A stretch of DNA of 33,425 bases from a bacterium (GTDB taxonomy: Bacteria > Patescibacteriota > Minisyncoccia > Phycocordibacterales > GWA1-40-21): NCBI GenBank assembly GCA_043814645.1, contig JBDRJU010000027.1:1-33425 (forward strand), in the 5' to 3' direction. Position numbers and translations under genes: made by a program. The first letter of the stretch is position 1; each line of letters starts with the position of its first letter. Shown piece after piece: positions 16,864 to 25,705 of the stretch. The notes under the pieces are model-generated. The model had not been told where the DNA came from. It saw only the letters and a list, made by a program, of their open reading frames with translations, and searched no databases.

Positions 16864-18165
16864 ATGAAATCAATTTTCAAAAAAATTATAACTACAATAA
16901 TCAAATTTGAATCGATTTTGATTATTAAGAAGTATAAACCACAAATAATAGCTGTGACAGGAAGTGTGGGAAAAACATCTACAAAAGATGCAATTTTTGC
17001 TGTAATGTCAGGTTCATTTTTTGTTAGAAAGAGTGAAAAAAGTTTTAATAGCGATATAGGCATTCCTCTCACAATCTTAGGTTGTCAAAACGCATGGTTT
17101 AATCCAATAATGTGGGCTAGAAATATTATTATAGGATTGGAACTGATTATTTTTAACTGTAATTATCCAAAATGGCTTATTTTAGAAGTTGGTGCTGACA
17201 GACCAGGAGATATAAAGGAAATTGCAAAATGGTTAAAGCCAAATATCGTAGTCCTCACTACTTTTCCAAAAGTACCAGTTCATGTCGAATTTTTTAAGGA
17301 TAGGGATGAAGTTGTTCGAGAAAAAAGATATCTAGTTGAAGCATTGAAATATGATGGAATACTCATAGTAAATGGTGATGATGAAGATTCCATGAAGATA
17401 AAAGGGGCTTCAAAAAATATTTCTATTATTTATGGAACAGACAAACTTGCCGATTTGGTTGCAACTGAATCTAAAAATTATTATGGTAAAGACGAAAAAA
17501 TAGAAGGGATAACTTTTAAAGTTGAATATGAAGGTAATATTGTTCCCATCGTAATAAAAGGCTCTTTGGGAGCTAAAAGTATTTACGCTTCCTTGGCTGC
17601 CATAGCTGTTGGACTTTATCTAAAAATAAATATAGTAAAATCTGGTGAAGCTCTTCTCAATTTTGATGCATCTAAAGGAAGAATGAAAATAATAAATGGA
17701 ATTAAAAATATTACAATAATAGATGATACCTACAATTCTTCTCCTGTTGCTTTGATATCAGCTCTATATTCTTTGAAACATGTGAATAAAAAAAATAAAG
17801 GAAGAAAAATAGCTGTTCTCGGAGATATGATGGAATTAGGAAAGCATTCTGCTGACGAACATTACAAAGTAGGGAAAATTGTTGCCGAAGTGTGTGATAT
17901 TTTAATCACTGTTGGCATCAGATCCAGAAAAATGGCTGAAGGAGCACTAGATGCTCTTATGAGTGAGAAAAATATCTTTCAGTTTGAAGATTCAATTTCC
18001 GCTGGAAAGGAGCTACAGAACATAATTAAGGAAAATGATATAATACTGGTTAAGGGCTCACAGTCTACAAGAATGGAAAAAGTTGTAGAAGAAGTGATGT
18101 TAGAACCTGAAAAAGCAAACAAACTTTTAGTGAGACAAGAAAGGGAATGGAAAAATATGATATGA
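16864..18165 (+). CDS. murF: UDP-N-acetylmuramoyl-tripeptide--D-alanyl-D-alanine ligase
   Basis: Contains AVTGSVGKTSTKD (P-loop), DDTYNSSP and VLGDMMELGKHSADEH, which is typical of MurF. Confidence 0.9.
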   Translation: MKSIFKKIITTIIKFESILIIKKYKPQIIAVTGSVGKTSTKDAIFAVMSGSFFVRKSEKSFNSDIGIPLTILGCQNAWFNPIMWARNIIIGLELIIFNCNYPKWLILEVGADRPGDIKEIAKWLKPNIVVLTTFPKVPVHVEFFKDRDEVVREKRYLVEALKYDGILIVNGDDEDSMKIKGASKNISIIYGTDKLADLVATESKNYYGKDEKIEGITFKVEYEGNIVPIVIKGSLGAKSIYASLAAIAVGLYLKINIVKSGEALLNFDASKGRMKIINGIKNITIIDDTYNSSPVALISALYSLKHVNKKNKGRKIAVLGDMMELGKHSADEHYKVGKIVAEVCDILITVGIRSRKMAEGALDALMSEKNIFQFEDSISAGKELQNIIKENDIILVKGSQSTRMEKVVEEVMLEPEKANKLLVRQEREWKNMI

Positions 18166-18216
18166 AATGATCACCTGATTTTTTAATTATCAGAATATTA
18201 TTAAATTTACAATTTA

Positions 18217-18398
18217 AAGACTCGATTTTTGCTGGAAAGGAACTACAGAACATAATTAAGGAAAATGATATAATGTTGGTTAGGGGCTCACAGTCTACAA
18301 GAATGGAAAAAGTTGTTGAAGGGGTGATGTTAGAATTTGAATTGGCTAAAGATTTTCTTGGAAAACAAGAGGAAAAGTGGAATAATATAAAATTAAAT
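18217..18398 (+). pseudogene. Duplicated fragment of the murF 3' end (last ~55 codons), in frame with thrC
   Basis: 18231-18340 matches 18001-18110 at 101/110 nt, with a constant offset of 230. Protein-level similarity continues beyond that (EPEKANKLLVRQEREWKNMI versus EFELAKDFLGKQEEKWNNIK). Confidence 0.7.
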
Positions 18399-21378: not shown

Positions 21379-21522
21379 CGCTCCGTCTGTCGATTCCCCG
21401 TAAGCTCTACAAAAATATAATCACCAAACACAAGACTTTGTGTCTAGTTTATTAATTTGTCTAAAAGAATACAAAATATGTAAAAGCAAAGTAGAAATAT
21501 CATACCTCTAGCTGACAAGACT

Positions 21523-21560
21523 ATCATTCGCCAAAATAGGCGAATGATTTTATTATTTTT
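21523..21560 (+). terminator. Orphan plus-strand intrinsic terminator with no annotated gene upstream
   Basis: 10-bp stem atcattcgcc / ggcgaatgat (21523-21532 / 21539-21548), followed by tttattatttttt. Confidence 0.65.
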
Positions 21561-21633
21561 TGTGTCATAAATCACTAAGTTTTTTATTTCATTTCATTCA
21601 TAAAAAATAAAGTGTTTGCGACCTCAGCTCGTG

Positions 21634-21653
21634 GTTCCGCAAGCTTGCGGAAC
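21634..21653. promoter_or_regulatory. Perfect 20-bp palindrome, a candidate dimeric-protein operator
   Basis: gttccgcaag|cttgcggaac. GC-rich, and centred on a HindIII-like aagctt. Confidence 0.45.
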
Positions 21654-21664
21654 ATCACTGTGCT

Positions 21665-21718
21665 TTCACAAAAATAAAAAGCTAATGCGAATAAGCATTA
21701 GCTTTTTATTTTTGTGAA
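21665..21718. terminator. Long symmetric hairpin, a bidirectional terminator
   Basis: Perfect 22-bp core stem cacaaaaataaaaagctaatgc / gcattagctttttatttttgtg (21667-21688 / 21695-21716), 24 bp over 21665-21718, with a 6-nt loop. A-rich 5' arm and T-rich 3' arm. Confidence 0.65.
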
Positions 21719-21754
21719 GTAATTGTATCATTTGCTCTAACTTTTTTCAAAGAA

Positions 21755-21893
21755 AAAGCCGACGAATGAGAAAGCCCCGCCTCGGGATTACCCTCGGCGG
21801 ACACCGAAAAAAATGTTCCTGGCATTTTCTGATTTGCGCGCGACAGATTTTTTCTTTTCCAAAGGACAGGACATTTTTTCGGTGTTCTGCCCT
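21755..21893. repeat. 139-bp structured repeat, copy 1, in inverted orientation relative to copy 2
   Basis: Its reverse complement equals 29455-29593 at 138/139 positions. The only difference is 21872 c against 29476 a. Confidence 0.9.
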
Positions 21894-21993
21894 CAAGGTC
21901 TCGGGCAGGCTTTAAAAACAAATTAATATTGTCTCTTCCATTTTCTTATTCTCTTGGTCGTTCCTGACTACGGAGACCAGTCCATCGGCATTC

Positions 21994-22374
21994 GCCTCGG
22001 ACATTTCCGCTAGGGCTACTCGCGCCTAAGTGTCTAGGTGCGGGTGAAGTCTTTTCCGAACGGCTCAAATACACCAAATGAGCCGTTCGGAAAAATCACC
22101 CGCCACTATTTGGGGAGAGGAAGGAATCCTCTCCCCAGCTTCGGGTTCCTCCTCGCAGTGGTGTTTGGGAGTTTTTAGTTCTTTCTTTTGTTTCGTATTT
22201 ACTTTGAGTTCATTACTTCGTTTTCTGTGCCTTCGGAGTCCACCCTCGCACAACCCCTCTTCTCGTTTTCATATTAGAGTTGGTGGTGTCGCTTTCGCTA
22301 CAGAGTTTAGTGACTTTAGTTTTCGTCGGCGCTCATCCTTAAGTCAGGGTCGCCCTAGCGGAAATGTCCGAGGC
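21994..22374. ncRNA. GC-rich 381-nt element closed by a perfect 23-bp helix. Either a structured ncRNA of unknown class or a MITE-like element.
   Basis: 21994-22016 is the exact reverse complement of 22352-22374. Nested perfect hairpins lie inside (16 bp, 9 bp and 8 bp). GC is far above the surrounding spacer, and there is no credible ORF. Confidence 0.45.
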
Positions 22375-22702
22375 TGAAAGATACTGTACTCGTCGAACAA
22401 GAAGTAATCTTGCAATCTTTTTCTCCATTACTACACACGAGAGGATTGCAACCTTCTACTGCTGGGTCACAAAGTTCTATATTAAAAGCTTTCTTTTCTA
22501 TTTTTTTATAATAATCTATCTGGGCGGGACAATCTGCACCTTCACATGGATAGTAAAAACAACTTTCTGTTTGTGAGTCGCATTTTATTTGAGCGTATAC
22601 CAAATAATCTTTTTTGATTACATATTTATAAAAAGTCACACCTATAGAAATAACAATCAAAACGCCAAATATCCAAAACAAGATTTTAGATTTTTTATCC
22701 AT
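22355..22702 (-). CDS. Small membrane-anchored cysteine-rich protein
   Basis: 115 aa. N-terminal TM helix ILFWIFGVLIVISIGVTFY, then 10 Cys in about 65 residues. The last 6 codons overlap the 3' arm of the 23-bp helix. Confidence 0.6.
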   Translation of the reverse strand: MDKKSKILFWIFGVLIVISIGVTFYKYVIKKDYLVYAQIKCDSQTESCFYYPCEGADCPAQIDYYKKIEKKAFNIELCDPAVEGCNPLVCSNGEKDCKITSCSTSTVSFSLGHFR

Positions 22703-22734
22703 AAGAGAATTATATCCTAAACAATAGTAAAAAA

Positions 22735-23515
22735 CTATAGCTCTTTTATTTTCCTAGAGACACGCTCTGCAAATCTCAAATTTGCCTCCCTCGCTTCCTT
22801 AAGTGCATTTGGATAAGTCGGTACATTTTTAATGTCTTTAATATCAAAATTATTAGCAACTATTAAAGGATGACGAAACCCAAAAAATTTAGTAGAAAAA
22901 GGTTGCATCACAATAACTCTCCTTTTTAATAATGTCGCCCAATAAGCTCCGTGATAACTATTAGTAAGAACCAACTCGGCACTTCCAAGAAAGCTTATTA
23001 TCTCTTCAAAAGAATCGCCATTCTTCATTTTAGGAAGGTCCAAGTTCAAATTTCTCATTGGAAAATTTTTGTGTTCATAGATTACAACCTTATTTTTTAT
23101 TTCGAATTCTTTATCAAATATGCTGTGCATACAACTTGGGCAGGGAACCCACTCAAGATAATTTGTGCTATCTCTTACCCCAAACAAATCAAACTCACTA
23201 GAATTTTTATATTCGTCGTGCAATATATCACATCCGCCATGAACATTATGACCAAGTGCCCACCCTATAAGTAATTTGGTCTTAGCTCCAAGTAGTGCTT
23301 TCATATAATCTTTAAAATAATCCTGAGCAATAAAACCACCTCCACCAAATATAATAATCCTTGCCTTCGATTTCTTTGACAAATTCATCTATAGGCAACT
23401 CAGTAATATCTAAGGTCCTAACATCCTTCAAAAAATCAAAGTATTTTGTGGGTGTGCCAAATTTATCACCTGTATTAGATGTGTTTTTACGATAGATGTT
23501 TACTATTTTTTCCAT
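22735..23515 (-). pseudogene. Polysaccharide pyruvyl transferase family gene split by a 1-nt frameshift
   Basis: The N-terminal piece (23515-23312) carries NTSNTGDKFG. The C-terminal piece (23388-22735) carries IIIFGGGGF and NSYHGAYWA. The two frames overlap at 23312-23388, and the shift must lie in the upstream part of this overlap, before the FGGGG motif. Confidence 0.7.
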
Positions 23516-23593
23516 GTATGTATAATAGTAGATAAATAATCGAAAAACAAGTACGGGATGGGAGATATATTTATTAAATTAATATAATTTTTT

Positions 23594-24130
23594 ATGGACA
23601 CGAAACAAACACAAGTAGATAATAATAAAATTGAATTAGCAAAAAAGTATGCTGCAGAGAAATTTGCAGAAACTGGGAGAAAGAATCATTATCTCGATGT
23701 CTTTACAATATTACATGACGAATTCAATGTACCCGAACAAGATGTTTTAATTGCTGGGCTCCTTCATGACACTCTGGAAGACACTTCGGCTACATATAAA
23801 GAAATAGAAGAAACTTTTTCAAAACAAATTGCAAATTTAGTACAAGAAGTATCTCATCCGAAAAATTATACACAGGAACAGAAAATAGAATACTATGAAA
23901 ATATAAAGAAAATATCTGATGGAGCAAAACTAATCAAAATGGCTGATTTTACATCACACCTCCGAAATTTTGCTAAAATATACGAGAGAGGAGAACAACA
24001 CCTTTATCCTAAATTTGCTAATAATGATAAATATATTGCGAGCATACGCGATTTTTTGGCTAGTTGTAAAGAATCAACTGGAAAAAATTTGGTTTATGAT
24101 TTAACTAATAGGTTAGAGGCTTTATTATAG
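23594..24130 (+). CDS. HD-domain phosphohydrolase resembling RelA/SpoT-type (p)ppGpp hydrolase domains
   Basis: 178 aa. Contains HYLDVFTIL and LIAGLLHDTLEDT, the HD motif in the context typical of small alarmone hydrolases. Confidence 0.8.
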   Translation: MDTKQTQVDNNKIELAKKYAAEKFAETGRKNHYLDVFTILHDEFNVPEQDVLIAGLLHDTLEDTSATYKEIEETFSKQIANLVQEVSHPKNYTQEQKIEYYENIKKISDGAKLIKMADFTSHLRNFAKIYERGEQHLYPKFANNDKYIASIRDFLASCKESTGKNLVYDLTNRLEALL

Positions 24131-24165
24131 ACGAGGAGGAGCTTTTTAAGTTGGTCCGTTTAAAT

Positions 24166-24194
24166 TTGACATAATACCTTTTTTGCTGTATACT
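24166..24194 (+). promoter_or_regulatory. Near-consensus sigma70 promoter for the TMPK-like kinase gene
   Basis: ttgaca (24166-24171), a 17-nt spacer ending in tg, then tatact (24189-24194). The strong SD aaaggagga lies 6-7 nt before the ATG at 24218. Confidence 0.55.
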
Positions 24195-24217
24195 ATAACC
24201 AGAAAGGAGGAAAGCTC

Positions 24218-24769
24218 ATGAAAAACGAAGGGGTACCTAAGTTCATTGTTTTAGAAGGCATTTCTGGAAGCGGTAAGACGGAGCTTGGTGTAAAATTGTC
24301 TCAGCAGATTTCTGCTCAATATTATACCACTCCTCCTACTCTGTTTCGTAAAATCAGAGAGGAAGTTGATAGGACTTTGTGTTTAGAATCAAGATTTTTG
24401 TTTTATCTCTCCTCTGTCGTACAGGCGTCGTGGGAGATCAACAAGATTCTTGAAACACAAAGTGTTGTGTGCGATAAATACATTTGGTCCACTATCTGTT
24501 ATCACACAGTATATGGGCTTGATGTGGAAATACCACCATCAACTACCTACCGCCAACCGGATTATACTTTCCTTGTTGTCTGTGAGGAAGAAAAAAGACT
24601 CGAGCGTTTGCGTCACCGTGGAGTTGTCAAAGATCAAAAGAAATACGATCTACGACAAGAAACGGAACGACGGTGCTTAGTCGAGTTTCGGAAACACATA
24701 CAACATGAGATTGACAACAGGATTGATGGCCCACAAAATGCTATTGATCAAATTCTCGCAGTTATCTAA
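24218..24769 (+). CDS. Thymidylate-kinase-family P-loop (d)NMP kinase-like protein
   Basis: Contains FIVLEGISGSGKT (P-loop) and CDKYIWSTICYH, which is equivalent to the TMPK DRY..S..AYQ motif. GC-richer than its neighbours. Confidence 0.75.
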   Translation: MKNEGVPKFIVLEGISGSGKTELGVKLSQQISAQYYTTPPTLFRKIREEVDRTLCLESRFLFYLSSVVQASWEINKILETQSVVCDKYIWSTICYHTVYGLDVEIPPSTTYRQPDYTFLVVCEEEKRLERLRHRGVVKDQKKYDLRQETERRCLVEFRKHIQHEIDNRIDGPQNAIDQILAVI

Positions 24770-25705
24770 GAGAGGTAGACGTGTTCTACCTCTCTTTTTT
24801 TTCATATATCTAAAGGCGTATTTATAGCCGAACAGTCTAATTAATCTACAAAAAGCCTCAAAAAAATTAAATTTGTTAATTGCTTGAATCCATTCTTTTA
24901 AAAAGTGCCTCGTAAGACAGACCTCTTTTTTATCATAGAAATTCTCTAAACCTCTTTTTTCTACCATAATATAATCAGATATCCCTTGCCAAAATAACCT
25001 ACGGGTCATAAATATTCTTGTCAGTCTTCTCTCTTTAATTTTGGACCAAACCTCTGCTTGTGGCTCATACCAAACCATACTCTGTGGAATTCTAATCAAA
25101 AATTCTGTGTCACCATTAGACAATAGATTATTACCTTTCCTGTCTAGGTTTGGATCAAACATACCAAATTTTTCAAATACTTCTCTCTTAAATGACATAT
25201 TTGCACCAATTATATAATAAGGCATATAGAGATGACCTGCTTGTTTAGGAAAATCGGGGGGCAAGAGAAATCTAAGAAAGTAGTTTGAAAACCAGGTGGG
25301 CCATTTTTTTGTCTCCTTATCTTTGACAAAAACAGGGCCTCCAACACAAAGTATATTCTGTTCGTTATAACCTTTTGAAATACTTTCAGCCCAATATTCC
25401 GATACGACTACATCATCGTCTAGGAACGCTATTATATCTGTCGTTGCTTCGATAATTCCCGTATTTCTGGCATAATTCAGACCAATACTTTTTTCTTCTA
25501 TAATCTTGACATTATTATAGTTTTTAAATTTTAAAATGTCTGAATCAAGGGAAAGAGAATTACCATTATCTACTAAAATGATTTCTTTGATATATTTTAT
25601 ATTAGAAGTAGTTGATAGGGAGCACACCAAATCTATTAGATTAGTAAATCTTTCTTCGTGCTTATATGTAGGAATAATTACAGTTATTAAAATTTTTTGT
25701 TGCAT
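24677..25705 (-). CDS. Family 2 glycosyltransferase
   Basis: Contains VIIPTYKHE, VDNGNS and IAFLDDDVVV (DxD). Its last ~31 codons are antisense to the kinase gene and its terminator. Confidence 0.85.
   Translation of the reverse strand: MQQKILITVIIPTYKHEERFTNLIDLVCSLSTTSNIKYIKEIILVDNGNSLSLDSDILKFKNYNNVKIIEEKSIGLNYARNTGIIEATTDIIAFLDDDVVVSEYWAESISKGYNEQNILCVGGPVFVKDKETKKWPTWFSNYFLRFLLPPDFPKQAGHLYMPYYIIGANMSFKREVFEKFGMFDPNLDRKGNNLLSNGDTEFLIRIPQSMVWYEPQAEVWSKIKERRLTRIFMTRRLFWQGISDYIMVEKRGLENFYDKKEVCLTRHFLKEWIQAINKFNFFEAFCRLIRLFGYKYAFRYMKKKRGRTRLPLLDNCENLINSILWAINPVVNLMLYVFPKLD
24769..24803 (+). terminator. Intrinsic terminator of the kinase gene, lying inside the convergent GT2 ORF
   Basis: agagaggtaga / tctacctctct (24769-24779 / 24785-24795), followed by tttttttt. 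Confidence 0.7.

Follow-up and report, generated by a model that had tools for sequence, protein, structure and literature searches.

In our study, a non-coding element rich in guanine and cytosine (GC) was examined at positions 21994–22374 of a 33,425-nucleotide stretch of DNA (the window; contig JBDRJU010000027.1, assembly GCA_043814645.1) from a bacterium of the Minisyncoccia. The 381-nt element is closed by a perfect 23-bp terminal helix (P1) with arms at 21994–22016 and 22352–22374. It is probably the core, sealed by P1, of a large and structured non-coding RNA found in the ultra-small bacteria of the Candidate Phyla Radiation (CPR, Patescibacteria), truncated at its 5' end in the window, and this RNA would form the co-transcribed 3' module of mobile accessory-gene cassettes. 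The best reading of the data is therefore one in which the element is neither a classic miniature inverted-repeat transposable element (MITE) nor a housekeeping RNA.

The element had been noticed in a first-pass annotation of the window as a jump to roughly 50% GC sealed by a perfect helix with nested hairpins, belonging to no recognisable RNA family. The GC content of positions 22001–22400 was 0.487 against 0.326 for the whole window, and the GC-rich stretch (21725–22467) was wider than the element. The arms were exact. The 23-mer GCCTCGGACATTTCCGCTAGGGC occurred only twice in the window, at 21994–22016 on the plus strand and at 22352–22374 on the minus strand, where 0 occurrences were expected (100 shuffles), and the wider terminal inverted repeat extended over 37 nt with 84% complementarity. 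The nested pairings were also present, with a perfect 16-bp stem (22052–22067/22079–22094), a perfect 11-bp stem (22111–22121/22127–22137), an outer pairing (22035–22047/22096–22108) and an 8-bp hairpin with one G-T pair (22021–22028/22035–22042). The terminal helix and most of these hairpins were found to be helices of a wider family with compensatory changes. The folding energy, compared with dinucleotide shuffles, gave z = −10.1 for either strand; as both strands folded about 10 standard deviations better than the shuffles, the strand could not be chosen from folding energy. The element lies within a 1.15-kb gene-free tract flanked by two minus-strand genes. The contig, which is from a metagenome assembly, is cellular and contains mraZ, mraW, ftsI, mur-ligase genes, aspS, greA and glycosyltransferase genes; close relatives of its proteins carry the labels Minisyncoccia or Nomurabacteria, by which the contig is assigned to the CPR.

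The homologues of the element were found by way of a spurious protein. The translated open plus-strand frame over the element returned 13 'proteins' from a protein collection. The peptide blocks common to them fell in different reading frames, so that the 13 'proteins' are gene-caller artefacts over homologous non-coding DNA; a real plus-strand protein over the element was rejected on the same ground, the plus strand being simply poor in adenine. A search of the GTDB species genomes with a 29-nt pattern from the conserved block gave 75 loci from about 71 species known from metagenome-assembled genomes (MAGs), nearly all of them Patescibacteria, and homologues were also present on further metagenome contigs. 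Most genomes contained one locus and four MAGs contained two. The host labels of the loci (numbered here with the prefix L, and examined as 8-kb blocks) were Saccharibacteria, Nomura-, Kaiser-, Zambryski-, Adler-, Vogel-, Falkow- and Roizmanbacteria, Absconditabacterales and Paceibacterota. The nhmmer E-values among the family loci went down to 1e-100 and lower. A family profile built with the window and its two closest relatives excluded matched the window end to end from 22381 to 21985 (E = 8.8e-100, 327.8 bits), and this was its one full-length match in the window. L015 was 90.7% identical to window positions 21739–22390, and L014, the sequence of which is visibly more GC-rich, was 71% identical to positions 21937–22379.

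No known RNA family accounted for these sequences, in agreement with the first-pass annotation. Rfam 15 gave 0 matches over the whole window at gathering thresholds, as well as 0 matches for the element in 18 homologous loci and 0 for one full-length family member at E ≤ 1; when the threshold was relaxed to E ≤ 10 on 21400–22800, only chance miRNA-like hairpin matches were found. ARAGORN reported neither a tRNA nor a tmRNA in the window. No description of the family was met in Rfam 15 or in full-text literature searches, which does not prove that none exists. A phage or plasmid origin of the element was rejected, as no match was found by blastn against the INPHARED phages (GenBank) and the PLSDB plasmids or by two pattern scans of IMG/VR. 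It is firmly established that the family is a real conserved structured nucleic-acid element that is not in Rfam 15.

Covariation, which the first-pass annotation had proposed to look for in related genomes, was examined in an alignment (A3) of 58 sequences in minus-strand orientation. The structure was taken from RNAalifold and curated to 48 pairs, and the RNAalifold result agreed with the curated structure. An automated helix search over pairs of columns was discarded in favour of RNAalifold and manual pairs, as it returned many false helices from conserved G-rich and C-rich runs. In the curated structure 94.2% of the cells were paired, against 35–54% when the partners were slid. Changes on both sides were seen in 15 pairs; column shuffles gave 8.1 ± 1.0 such pairs, none of 500 shuffles reached 15, and the slid controls gave 4–8.

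Compensatory changes were found in P1, in the second closing helix P2 and in two hairpins (Table 1). In P1, the swaps were CGGACA/UGUCCG, CGGGCA/UGCCCG, CAGGCA/UGCCUG, GGGCUA/UAGCCC and CGGGUA/UACCCG; its inner half was very conserved and swaps were rarer there. P2 contained GAGCGCC/GGCGCGAG with tandem G·A pairs, which were exchanged for the Watson-Crick form CGAGCGCC/GGCGCUCG in 13 sequences and for GAACGCC/GGCGUUC in L075. The small hairpin between P1 and P2 was GUCC-AUGACUAA-AGGAU in most sequences and GUCC...GGAC in one subgroup, and in a few sequences (e.g. L024, L043, L034, L083) it was shortened or replaced. In helix 4, the GGGGAGAGG hairpin, two pairs switched from G-C to A-U in 20 and 24 sequences. 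At the position of the variable stem-loop most relatives contained a different, covarying hairpin, and helix 5 was changed on both sides in all 4 pairs. The GGGGUUGUGCGAGGGUGGACUCC block and the flanking UGAAAACGAG and GAAGGCAC were the most conserved part of the family; helix 3, in the near-invariant block, was paired in 99.6% of the cells and showed no covariation since its sequence never varies. The signature of the family is this near-invariant, unpaired or hairpin block, UGAAAACGAG...GGGGUUGUGCGAGGG(C/U)GGACUCCGAAGGCAC, and the window contained the block together with P1, P2 and the GGGGnnnGG hairpin. A resemblance of GGAAAUGUCCGAGGC to the P4 motif of RNase P, seen by eye, was rejected, as it is on the wrong strand and inside a fully paired arm.

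The same alignment indicated the strand. Among the wobble cells in minus orientation, 194 were G·U or U·G and 7 were A·C or C·A; because of this ratio and of the alternation between GAAA and GGAA in a hairpin loop, the RNA was placed on the minus strand of the window. The first-pass annotation had seen conflicting strand cues. Its minus-strand cue, the tttc at 22293–22296 that reads GAAA on that strand, agrees with both results. Its plus-strand cue, the G-T pairing, was set aside, as the 8-bp hairpin concerned conflicts with P2; the hairpin can be read in the sequence but competes with the pairing 22022–22026/22328–22332, which is better supported by covariation. It is firmly established that selection acts on the helices to maintain their pairing on the minus strand. 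Four points lead us to infer an RNA rather than a folded single-stranded DNA: the size of the element, its position, its GNRA loop and the replacement of tandem G·A by Watson-Crick pairs. GNRA tetraloops and the tandem G·A/Watson-Crick exchange are hallmarks of RNA.

A separate observation concerns a recurring mini-hairpin, (G)AACGGCUCAUUU...AAAUGAGCCGUU(C), which was found in the window (22052–22094) and in L015, L038, L024, L034, L043 and L045, in some members within the variable stem. In L015, L038, L024, L034 and L043 it was found outside the RNA, on the 5' or the 3' side, which suggests a small, separately mobile or modular hairpin.

The 381 nt had been described in the first-pass annotation as a sealed element. 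They are not a complete gene, as the conservation of the family ran past both P1 arms and the 381 nt is only the core domain of a longer unit. The full-length members contained a 5' domain of about 95 nt, a core of about 380 nt (the 23-bp P1 and P2), a short 3' hairpin and a structured 3' domain of 140–290 nt, in this order, and the whole conserved unit is about 750–800 nt long. The 5' domain, present in most members, begins with AGGGAG, followed by a covarying hairpin and then GCGCGCGAACGGGAGGGUGGGUCAAGCGC. The 3' domain comes in several sequence types, one of which is a 140-nt repeat in the window. The profile of the 5' domain gave 73 matches across the family loci and no match in the window at E ≤ 10, and the window copy is therefore a truncated member of the family.

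In the window, a truncated gene stands where the 5' domain would be expected. The homology of the window to its closest relatives (L038 and L015) started only at ACAGUnUCUUUCAGCC, and upstream of it lies a gene for 115 amino acids. The relatives of this gene read ACTGTATC at the junction and the RNA family reads ACAGTGTC, so that the junction is one of microhomology. Both the 5' domain and the last part of the 115-aa gene were probably lost in a deletion at an 8-nt microhomology (ACAGTnTC), by which the RNA and the gene were joined. In the 115-aa open reading frame (ORF), a membrane helix at the N-terminus precedes a Cys-rich region, and the many relatives of the ORF were 119–130 aa long. Its tail FSLGHFR* is read from the P1 arm, the 5' strand of which also supplies the final codons of the ORF together with its UAG stop, whereas the relatives continue with ...S(E/S)GEECS...; the protein homology ends at about 22380, five bases short of the arm. 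The overlap of the coding sequence 22355–22702 with the element, pointed out in the first-pass annotation, is real but is not incidental, as this coding sequence is a truncated gene fused to the element. A search for an empty site through relatives of the 115-aa gene (P0001, P0003, P0046 and P0047) found differing downstream genes and no clean empty site. That the window copy is a 5'-truncated member of the family fused to a truncated gene is firmly established; the 115-aa gene is a product of this fusion and truncation, and the RNA copy is incomplete.

The genes next to the RNA followed a common pattern. By a count over the locus listing, about 55 of 66 loci had a nearest 5'-side ORF that ran in the direction of the RNA, and in most of these it ended 41–110 nt past the profile end; where the layout was clear, AGGGAG followed the stop codon of the preceding gene after 2–10 nt. 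These ORFs were mutually unrelated across the loci. The cargo was very diverse, with restriction-modification, Shedu, CBASS-like and reverse transcriptase (RT) genes as well as metal ATPases and sugar enzymes. Among it were D12, N6_N4 and C5 methylases, HARE-HTH nuclease, GmrSD, Shedu SduA, SMODS/AGS-C, ThsB-TIR, patatin, RT/DRT-like proteins and SocA-HTH; further cargo was P-type ATPases, multicopper oxidase, epimerase, NUDIX and PPDK.

Long inverted repeats were found around many of these units. In the window, the structured 140-nt GC-rich sequence at 21754–21893 recurs inverted at 29594–29455 with 99.3% identity, at a distance of 7.6 kb. An inverted copy of the 3' domain beyond the cargo was found in at least 20 loci including the window; the copies were 55–288 nt long, mostly 100% identical and 1.4–7.3 kb away. 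The cassette units ranged from 2.3 to 7.8 kb, that of the window (21754–29594) being 7.8 kb. Directly on the inner side of the distal copy, an AT-rich palindromic region and, as the first gene, that of a 48–72-aa HTH_3 (XRE) protein were found in 7 of 13 loci. In the window, the 67-aa ORF at 23312–23515 was considered as the XRE gene and rejected, since its translation and the partial Pfam match of the adjacent ORF make it look like the N-terminus of a frameshifted pyruvyl transferase. It is firmly established that the family is a marker of the 3' end of accessory-gene cassettes of variable content, and that these are often enclosed by long inverted repeats.

Read-through transcription from the cargo operon is the most likely source of the RNA, because no terminator and no conserved promoter was seen between cargo and RNA across the loci. 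In the proposed cassette, the first gene is often that of a small XRE/HTH_3 regulator, preceded by a palindromic promoter region; arbitrary cargo follows and the RNA comes last, and would be transcribed together with the cargo as the 3' module of the message. The P1 duplex would seal the core and is a plausible processing site for a double-strand RNase; the 3' domain would end transcription and insulate the cassette, and a partner presumably binds to those unpaired blocks that are invariant. The function that we favour is that of a cis-acting 3' module, which would serve the expression or stability, and the insulation, of a self-contained cassette.

Several points weigh against this account. 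Co-transcription, the sealing or processing at P1 and the role of the 3' domain as terminator or insulator are read from the layout only. No distal inverted copy was found in about half of the evaluable loci (within the 8-kb blocks), and L088 looks circular and is without the inverted repeat. The G·T wobble is also tolerated in folded single-stranded DNA, so that the strand asymmetry alone is no proof of RNA, and the most conserved blocks never vary, so that pairing there is unsupported by covariation. The family members were ascertained by one exact 29-nt pattern, which biases the estimates of prevalence and conservation, and for many MAGs the organism label was assigned automatically and may be imprecise. 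The copy in the window is atypical, with no 5' domain, no XRE gene and cargo partly on the opposite strand, and it may be a non-functional relic; set against this, it is retained at 99.9–100% identity in three further assemblies of the locus (which are uninformative for covariation).

Three other explanations were weighed. The element could be a housekeeping RNA gene of the CPR, such as a divergent analogue of RNase P RNA or a 6S-like RNA, with mobile islands integrating beside it, as happens at tRNA and tmRNA genes, and the neighbouring genes not being its cargo. The copy number, usually one per MAG, would suit such a gene, and the size, the closing helix, the GNRA loops and the invariant unpaired blocks are typical of catalytic or scaffold RNAs. 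Recombinases were near in 5 loci, tRNA or tmRNA genes adjoined the unit in L015, L022, L055 and L063 (tRNA genes at the unit ends in the last three), and assemblies often break beside the element. The neighbouring genes speak otherwise. The insertion site of islands that use RNA genes as their targets is the 3' end, and here the variable genes are on the 5' side of the RNA, at a fixed distance and co-directional. By eye, the core sequences of alignment A3 were visibly near-identical between MAGs labelled Roizman-, Falkow-, Kaiser- and Nomurabacteria and 'Saccharibacteria', and such near-identity across class labels suggests horizontal spread rather than vertical descent. Four MAGs have two copies, and the copy of the window genome is 5'-truncated. 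Only 75 matches were found in the GTDB species, with no named cultivated CPR genome among them, which is a weak argument as the exact 29-nt pattern was required. A genuine tmRNA is present elsewhere in L015, at a distance of 1.7 kb, and in the window Rfam gave no RNase P signature. We regard a housekeeping gene as quite unlikely.

The second explanation, that the element acts as DNA, has in our judgement only a slim chance of being right. It would then be a MITE with 23-bp terminal inverted repeats, as the first-pass annotation had suggested, or a folded single-strand site for replication or recombination, such as a plasmid single-strand origin (sso) or an oversized attC. The terminal inverted repeat is perfect, the position 3' of cargo genes is that of attC, G·T wobbles are possible in single-stranded DNA and the distribution suggests horizontal spread; L088 and L028, described below, also lend themselves to it. 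A MITE is contradicted by the copy number (one in the window and one or two per MAG) and by the arms, which change by compensatory substitution like an RNA helix and are not fixed like a protein-binding site. The absence of a target-site duplication, already remarked in the first-pass annotation, was confirmed, as the flanks ...ggcattc and tgaaaga... contain no direct repeat and the conservation of the relatives continues past both arms. The GNRA tetraloop and the tandem G·A/Watson-Crick exchange point to RNA, the multi-domain architecture of about 800 nt is far above the size of attC or sso, no integron integrase, Rep or transposase is conserved nearby, and the element is absent from the PLSDB plasmids, the GenBank phages and IMG/VR. 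The earlier suspicion of mobility failed for the 381 nt as a MITE and survives in another form, that of horizontally spread cassettes bounded by inverted repeats, for which the repeat is 21754–21893/29594–29455, a sequence pair that the first-pass annotation had missed. Both the DNA-level and the housekeeping explanations fit the data less well than a cis-acting 3' module of the cassettes.

In the third explanation, the RNA acts in trans in the mobility or capture of cassettes, as a bridge- or guide-RNA-like partner of a recombinase or nuclease encoded elsewhere, and its 3' domain is identical to both cassette ends. Cassettes that are otherwise unrelated have nothing constant but the RNA and the inverted copy of its 3' domain, to which a small HTH protein is often added. 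No transposase or integrase was conserved in cis across the loci, and the inverted-repeat copies were mostly 100% identical within a genome and different between genomes. Against this, no candidate protein partner was found, the inverted repeats were not seen in all loci, and no variable loop was shown to match the flanking DNA in a comparison that covered the outer cassette flanks against each other only. The explanation is wholly inferential and we hold it to be improbable. A retron msr-msd RNA with a1/a2 repeats was rejected, as there is no adjacent reverse transcriptase and the downstream 282-aa ORF is a short-chain dehydrogenase, and RNase P, tmRNA, SRP, 6S and introns were rejected for want of Rfam or ARAGORN support.

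Table 1. Features of the RNA element and its cassette in the window (positions of the whole stretch)
Feature	Position	Strand	Basis
Core domain of the RNA, closed by P1	21994–22374	−	Leave-out profile match; alignment A3
P1, 5' strand GCCUCGGACAUUUCCGCUAGGGC	22352–22374	−	Helix 1: 7 pairs changed on both sides, 97.9% of cells paired
P1, 3' strand	21994–22016	−	Compensatory swaps across the family
P2, 5' strand UGAGCGCC	22328–22335	−	Pairs with 22019–22026; helix 2
P2, 3' strand GGCGCGAG	22019–22026	−	Competes with the 8-bp plus-strand hairpin 22021–22028/22035–22042
Small hairpin between P1 and P2 CCCUGACUUAAGGAU	22336–22350	−	Hairpin at that position in most of the family; the 5-bp hairpin of the first-pass annotation
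GNRA-loop hairpin GUAGC-GAAA-GCGAC	22288–22301	−	Loop alternates GAAA/GGAA in the family; hairpin missing in a subgroup
Near-invariant block GGGGUUGUGCGAGGGUGGACUCC, predicted hairpin	22235–22257	−	Invariant A3 columns; source of the 29-nt search pattern
A-rich, poorly paired linker	22162–22232	−	Variable sequence; deleted in ~313-nt forms (L018, L031, L080, L083)
Hairpin GGGGAGAGGA-UUCCU-UCCUCUCCCC	22111–22137	−	Helix 4
Variable stem-loop	22043–22100	−	Window copy: perfect 16-bp stem, recurrent GAACGGCUCA...UGAGCCGUUC type
Linker remnant upstream of P1, last ~17 nt, ACAGUAUCUUUCA	22375–22391	−	Junction with host gene; flank comparison
Conserved 3' extension after P1, GGCGAAUGCCGA..., with hairpin UGGUCUCCGUAGUCAGGAACGACCA at 21955–21979	21940–21993	−	Conservation profile; flank comparison
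3' domain 'A', structured, with terminator-like hairpin 21775–21787	21754–21893	−	99.3% identical to 29594–29455; A-type domains 3' of the core across loci
Truncated Cys-rich membrane-protein gene, 115 aa, fused to the RNA	22355–22702	−	Homologue comparison
Inverted second copy of the 3' domain, distal cassette boundary on the cargo side, at 7.1 kb	29455–29594	+	Architecture present in at least 20 loci, the window included

Some loci and neighbouring sequences showed further features. A target-site duplication at the cassette-scale inverted repeats was found in L028 only, as an 11-bp direct repeat, and in none of six other loci. In L028 (1–300 and 6845–6916) this repeat, GAGTGTAGCGA, was in AAAAAA/TTTTTT outside the inverted repeats, and further out were direct repeats of 35–55 nt (GGCTGGGAGACTAGGACCG...); this arrangement could be a target duplication or a nested integration. 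L088 had an identical direct terminal overlap of 149 nt (1–149/7689–7837), as expected for a circular contig of 7.7 kb, and carried a 5'-truncated RNA copy, an HTH-SocA/Panacea gene, a DNA methylase and an 837-aa protein without a Pfam match. In L015 (3360–5253), smpB is followed downstream by a bona fide tmRNA gene, the 3' end of which is overlapped by a gene for a large serine recombinase; the RNA unit comes directly after. The arrangement resembles an island with ssrA of a CPR genome as its integration site.

In the window itself, a perfect 24-bp AT-rich hairpin (TTCACAAAAATAAAAAGCTAATGC, 6-nt loop) was found at 21665–21718, just outside the 140-nt repeat, with A/T runs on both sides as in a bidirectional terminator, and a simpler hairpin followed by a T-run was found at 21523–21548. 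Within the cassette, the polysaccharide pyruvyl transferase gene at 22735–23515 (minus strand) is apparently split, as the 67-aa ORF overlaps the start of a 217-aa ORF (22735–23388), the Pfam match of which was limited to profile positions 55–276; the split points to a frameshift, a pseudogene or an error of assembly. Just beyond the distal repeat, a minus-strand block with methyltransferase, NUDIX and GT2 genes (30536–32900) had a GC content of 0.41–0.59, above the rest of the window, and may be foreign DNA. Two direct repeats of about 190 nt (17977–18168 and 18207–18398), given as 230 nt apart and about 80% identical, were found from the end of the Mur-ligase gene to the start of a threonine-synthase-like gene.

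The cassette architecture, in which a regulator and arbitrary cargo are followed by a large RNA with its 3' domain repeated inverted, has to our knowledge not been described. Large, strongly conserved structured RNAs are rare, and RNase P, OLE, GOLLD, ROOL and the ωRNAs have each brought unexpected biochemistry; the present family, with its clear covariation and its invariant blocks in many lineages of the CPR, a part of the bacteria that is little understood, is a candidate for a new RNA class. As it stands at a fixed 3' boundary, the RNA offers a handle for finding accessory and defence genes of the CPR, and the cassettes point to the way in which genes move between these reduced cells with an episymbiotic life. 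The ends of many MAG contigs lie in the repeat or beside it, and the conserved RNA and the inverted repeat may contribute to the breaks in CPR metagenome assemblies at these loci. A bolder proposal is that the family forms an RNA-marked cassette platform of the CPR, in which an RNA of about 800 nt, with its 3' domain doubling as an inverted terminal repeat, is the functional core of the mobile unit and directs the capture, exchange or mobilisation of arbitrary accessory genes (defence, metal resistance, glycan genes) between deeply divergent lineages. We consider this rather unlikely; if true, the platform would be a functional analogue of integrons or of RNA-guided transposons without a recombinase encoded in cis, and the window copy would be a decayed one.

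Compared with known systems, the element resembles the bacterial MITEs (e.g. Correia, RUP, ERIC) in being non-coding and GC-distinct, with terminal inverted repeats and a strong predicted fold, but differs from them in its one or two copies, its covarying arms without target-site duplication and its place within a larger, gene-containing unit. The cassettes share with the restriction-modification operons controlled by C-proteins a small HTH_3 gene that comes first behind a palindromic operator, and methyltransferases and restriction endonucleases are frequent cargo. The cargo of the CPR cassettes is, however, not restricted to restriction-modification, and we know of no described C-protein-controlled system with a large 3' RNA or with long flanking inverted repeats. 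In integron cassettes, as here, highly diverse cargo is followed by a co-directional, conserved, folded element with paired arms at a fixed distance. The attC site is a single-stranded DNA of 57–141 nt recognised by IntI, whereas the CPR element is far larger (about 550–800 nt), contains RNA-type motifs, occurs once per locus rather than in an array and is bounded by long inverted repeats; no integron-integrase family was found among the listed Pfam families of the ORFs adjoining the element.

The RNAs of transposon ends, namely HEARO/IscB ωRNA, TnpB ωRNA (reRNA) and IS110 bridge RNA, are also structured RNAs at or overlapping the end of a mobile unit, of which they are the most conserved non-protein part. 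The CPR RNA is much larger and is found without an adjacent gene for IscB, TnpB or an IS110 recombinase and without an identified guide segment, and the HEARO family of Rfam gave no match. With GOLLD and ROOL, the CPR RNA has in common a length of several hundred nucleotides, multiple helices, strongly conserved unpaired blocks, an association with mobile DNA instead of core genes and a function that is unknown. It had no match to them in sequence or structure (cmscan, Rfam) and was not found in viral collections; its host range is the CPR, whereas GOLLD and ROOL belong to Lactobacillales and to rumen or lake phages, and, in contrast to them, it directly follows a cargo operon and is duplicated in part as an inverted repeat.

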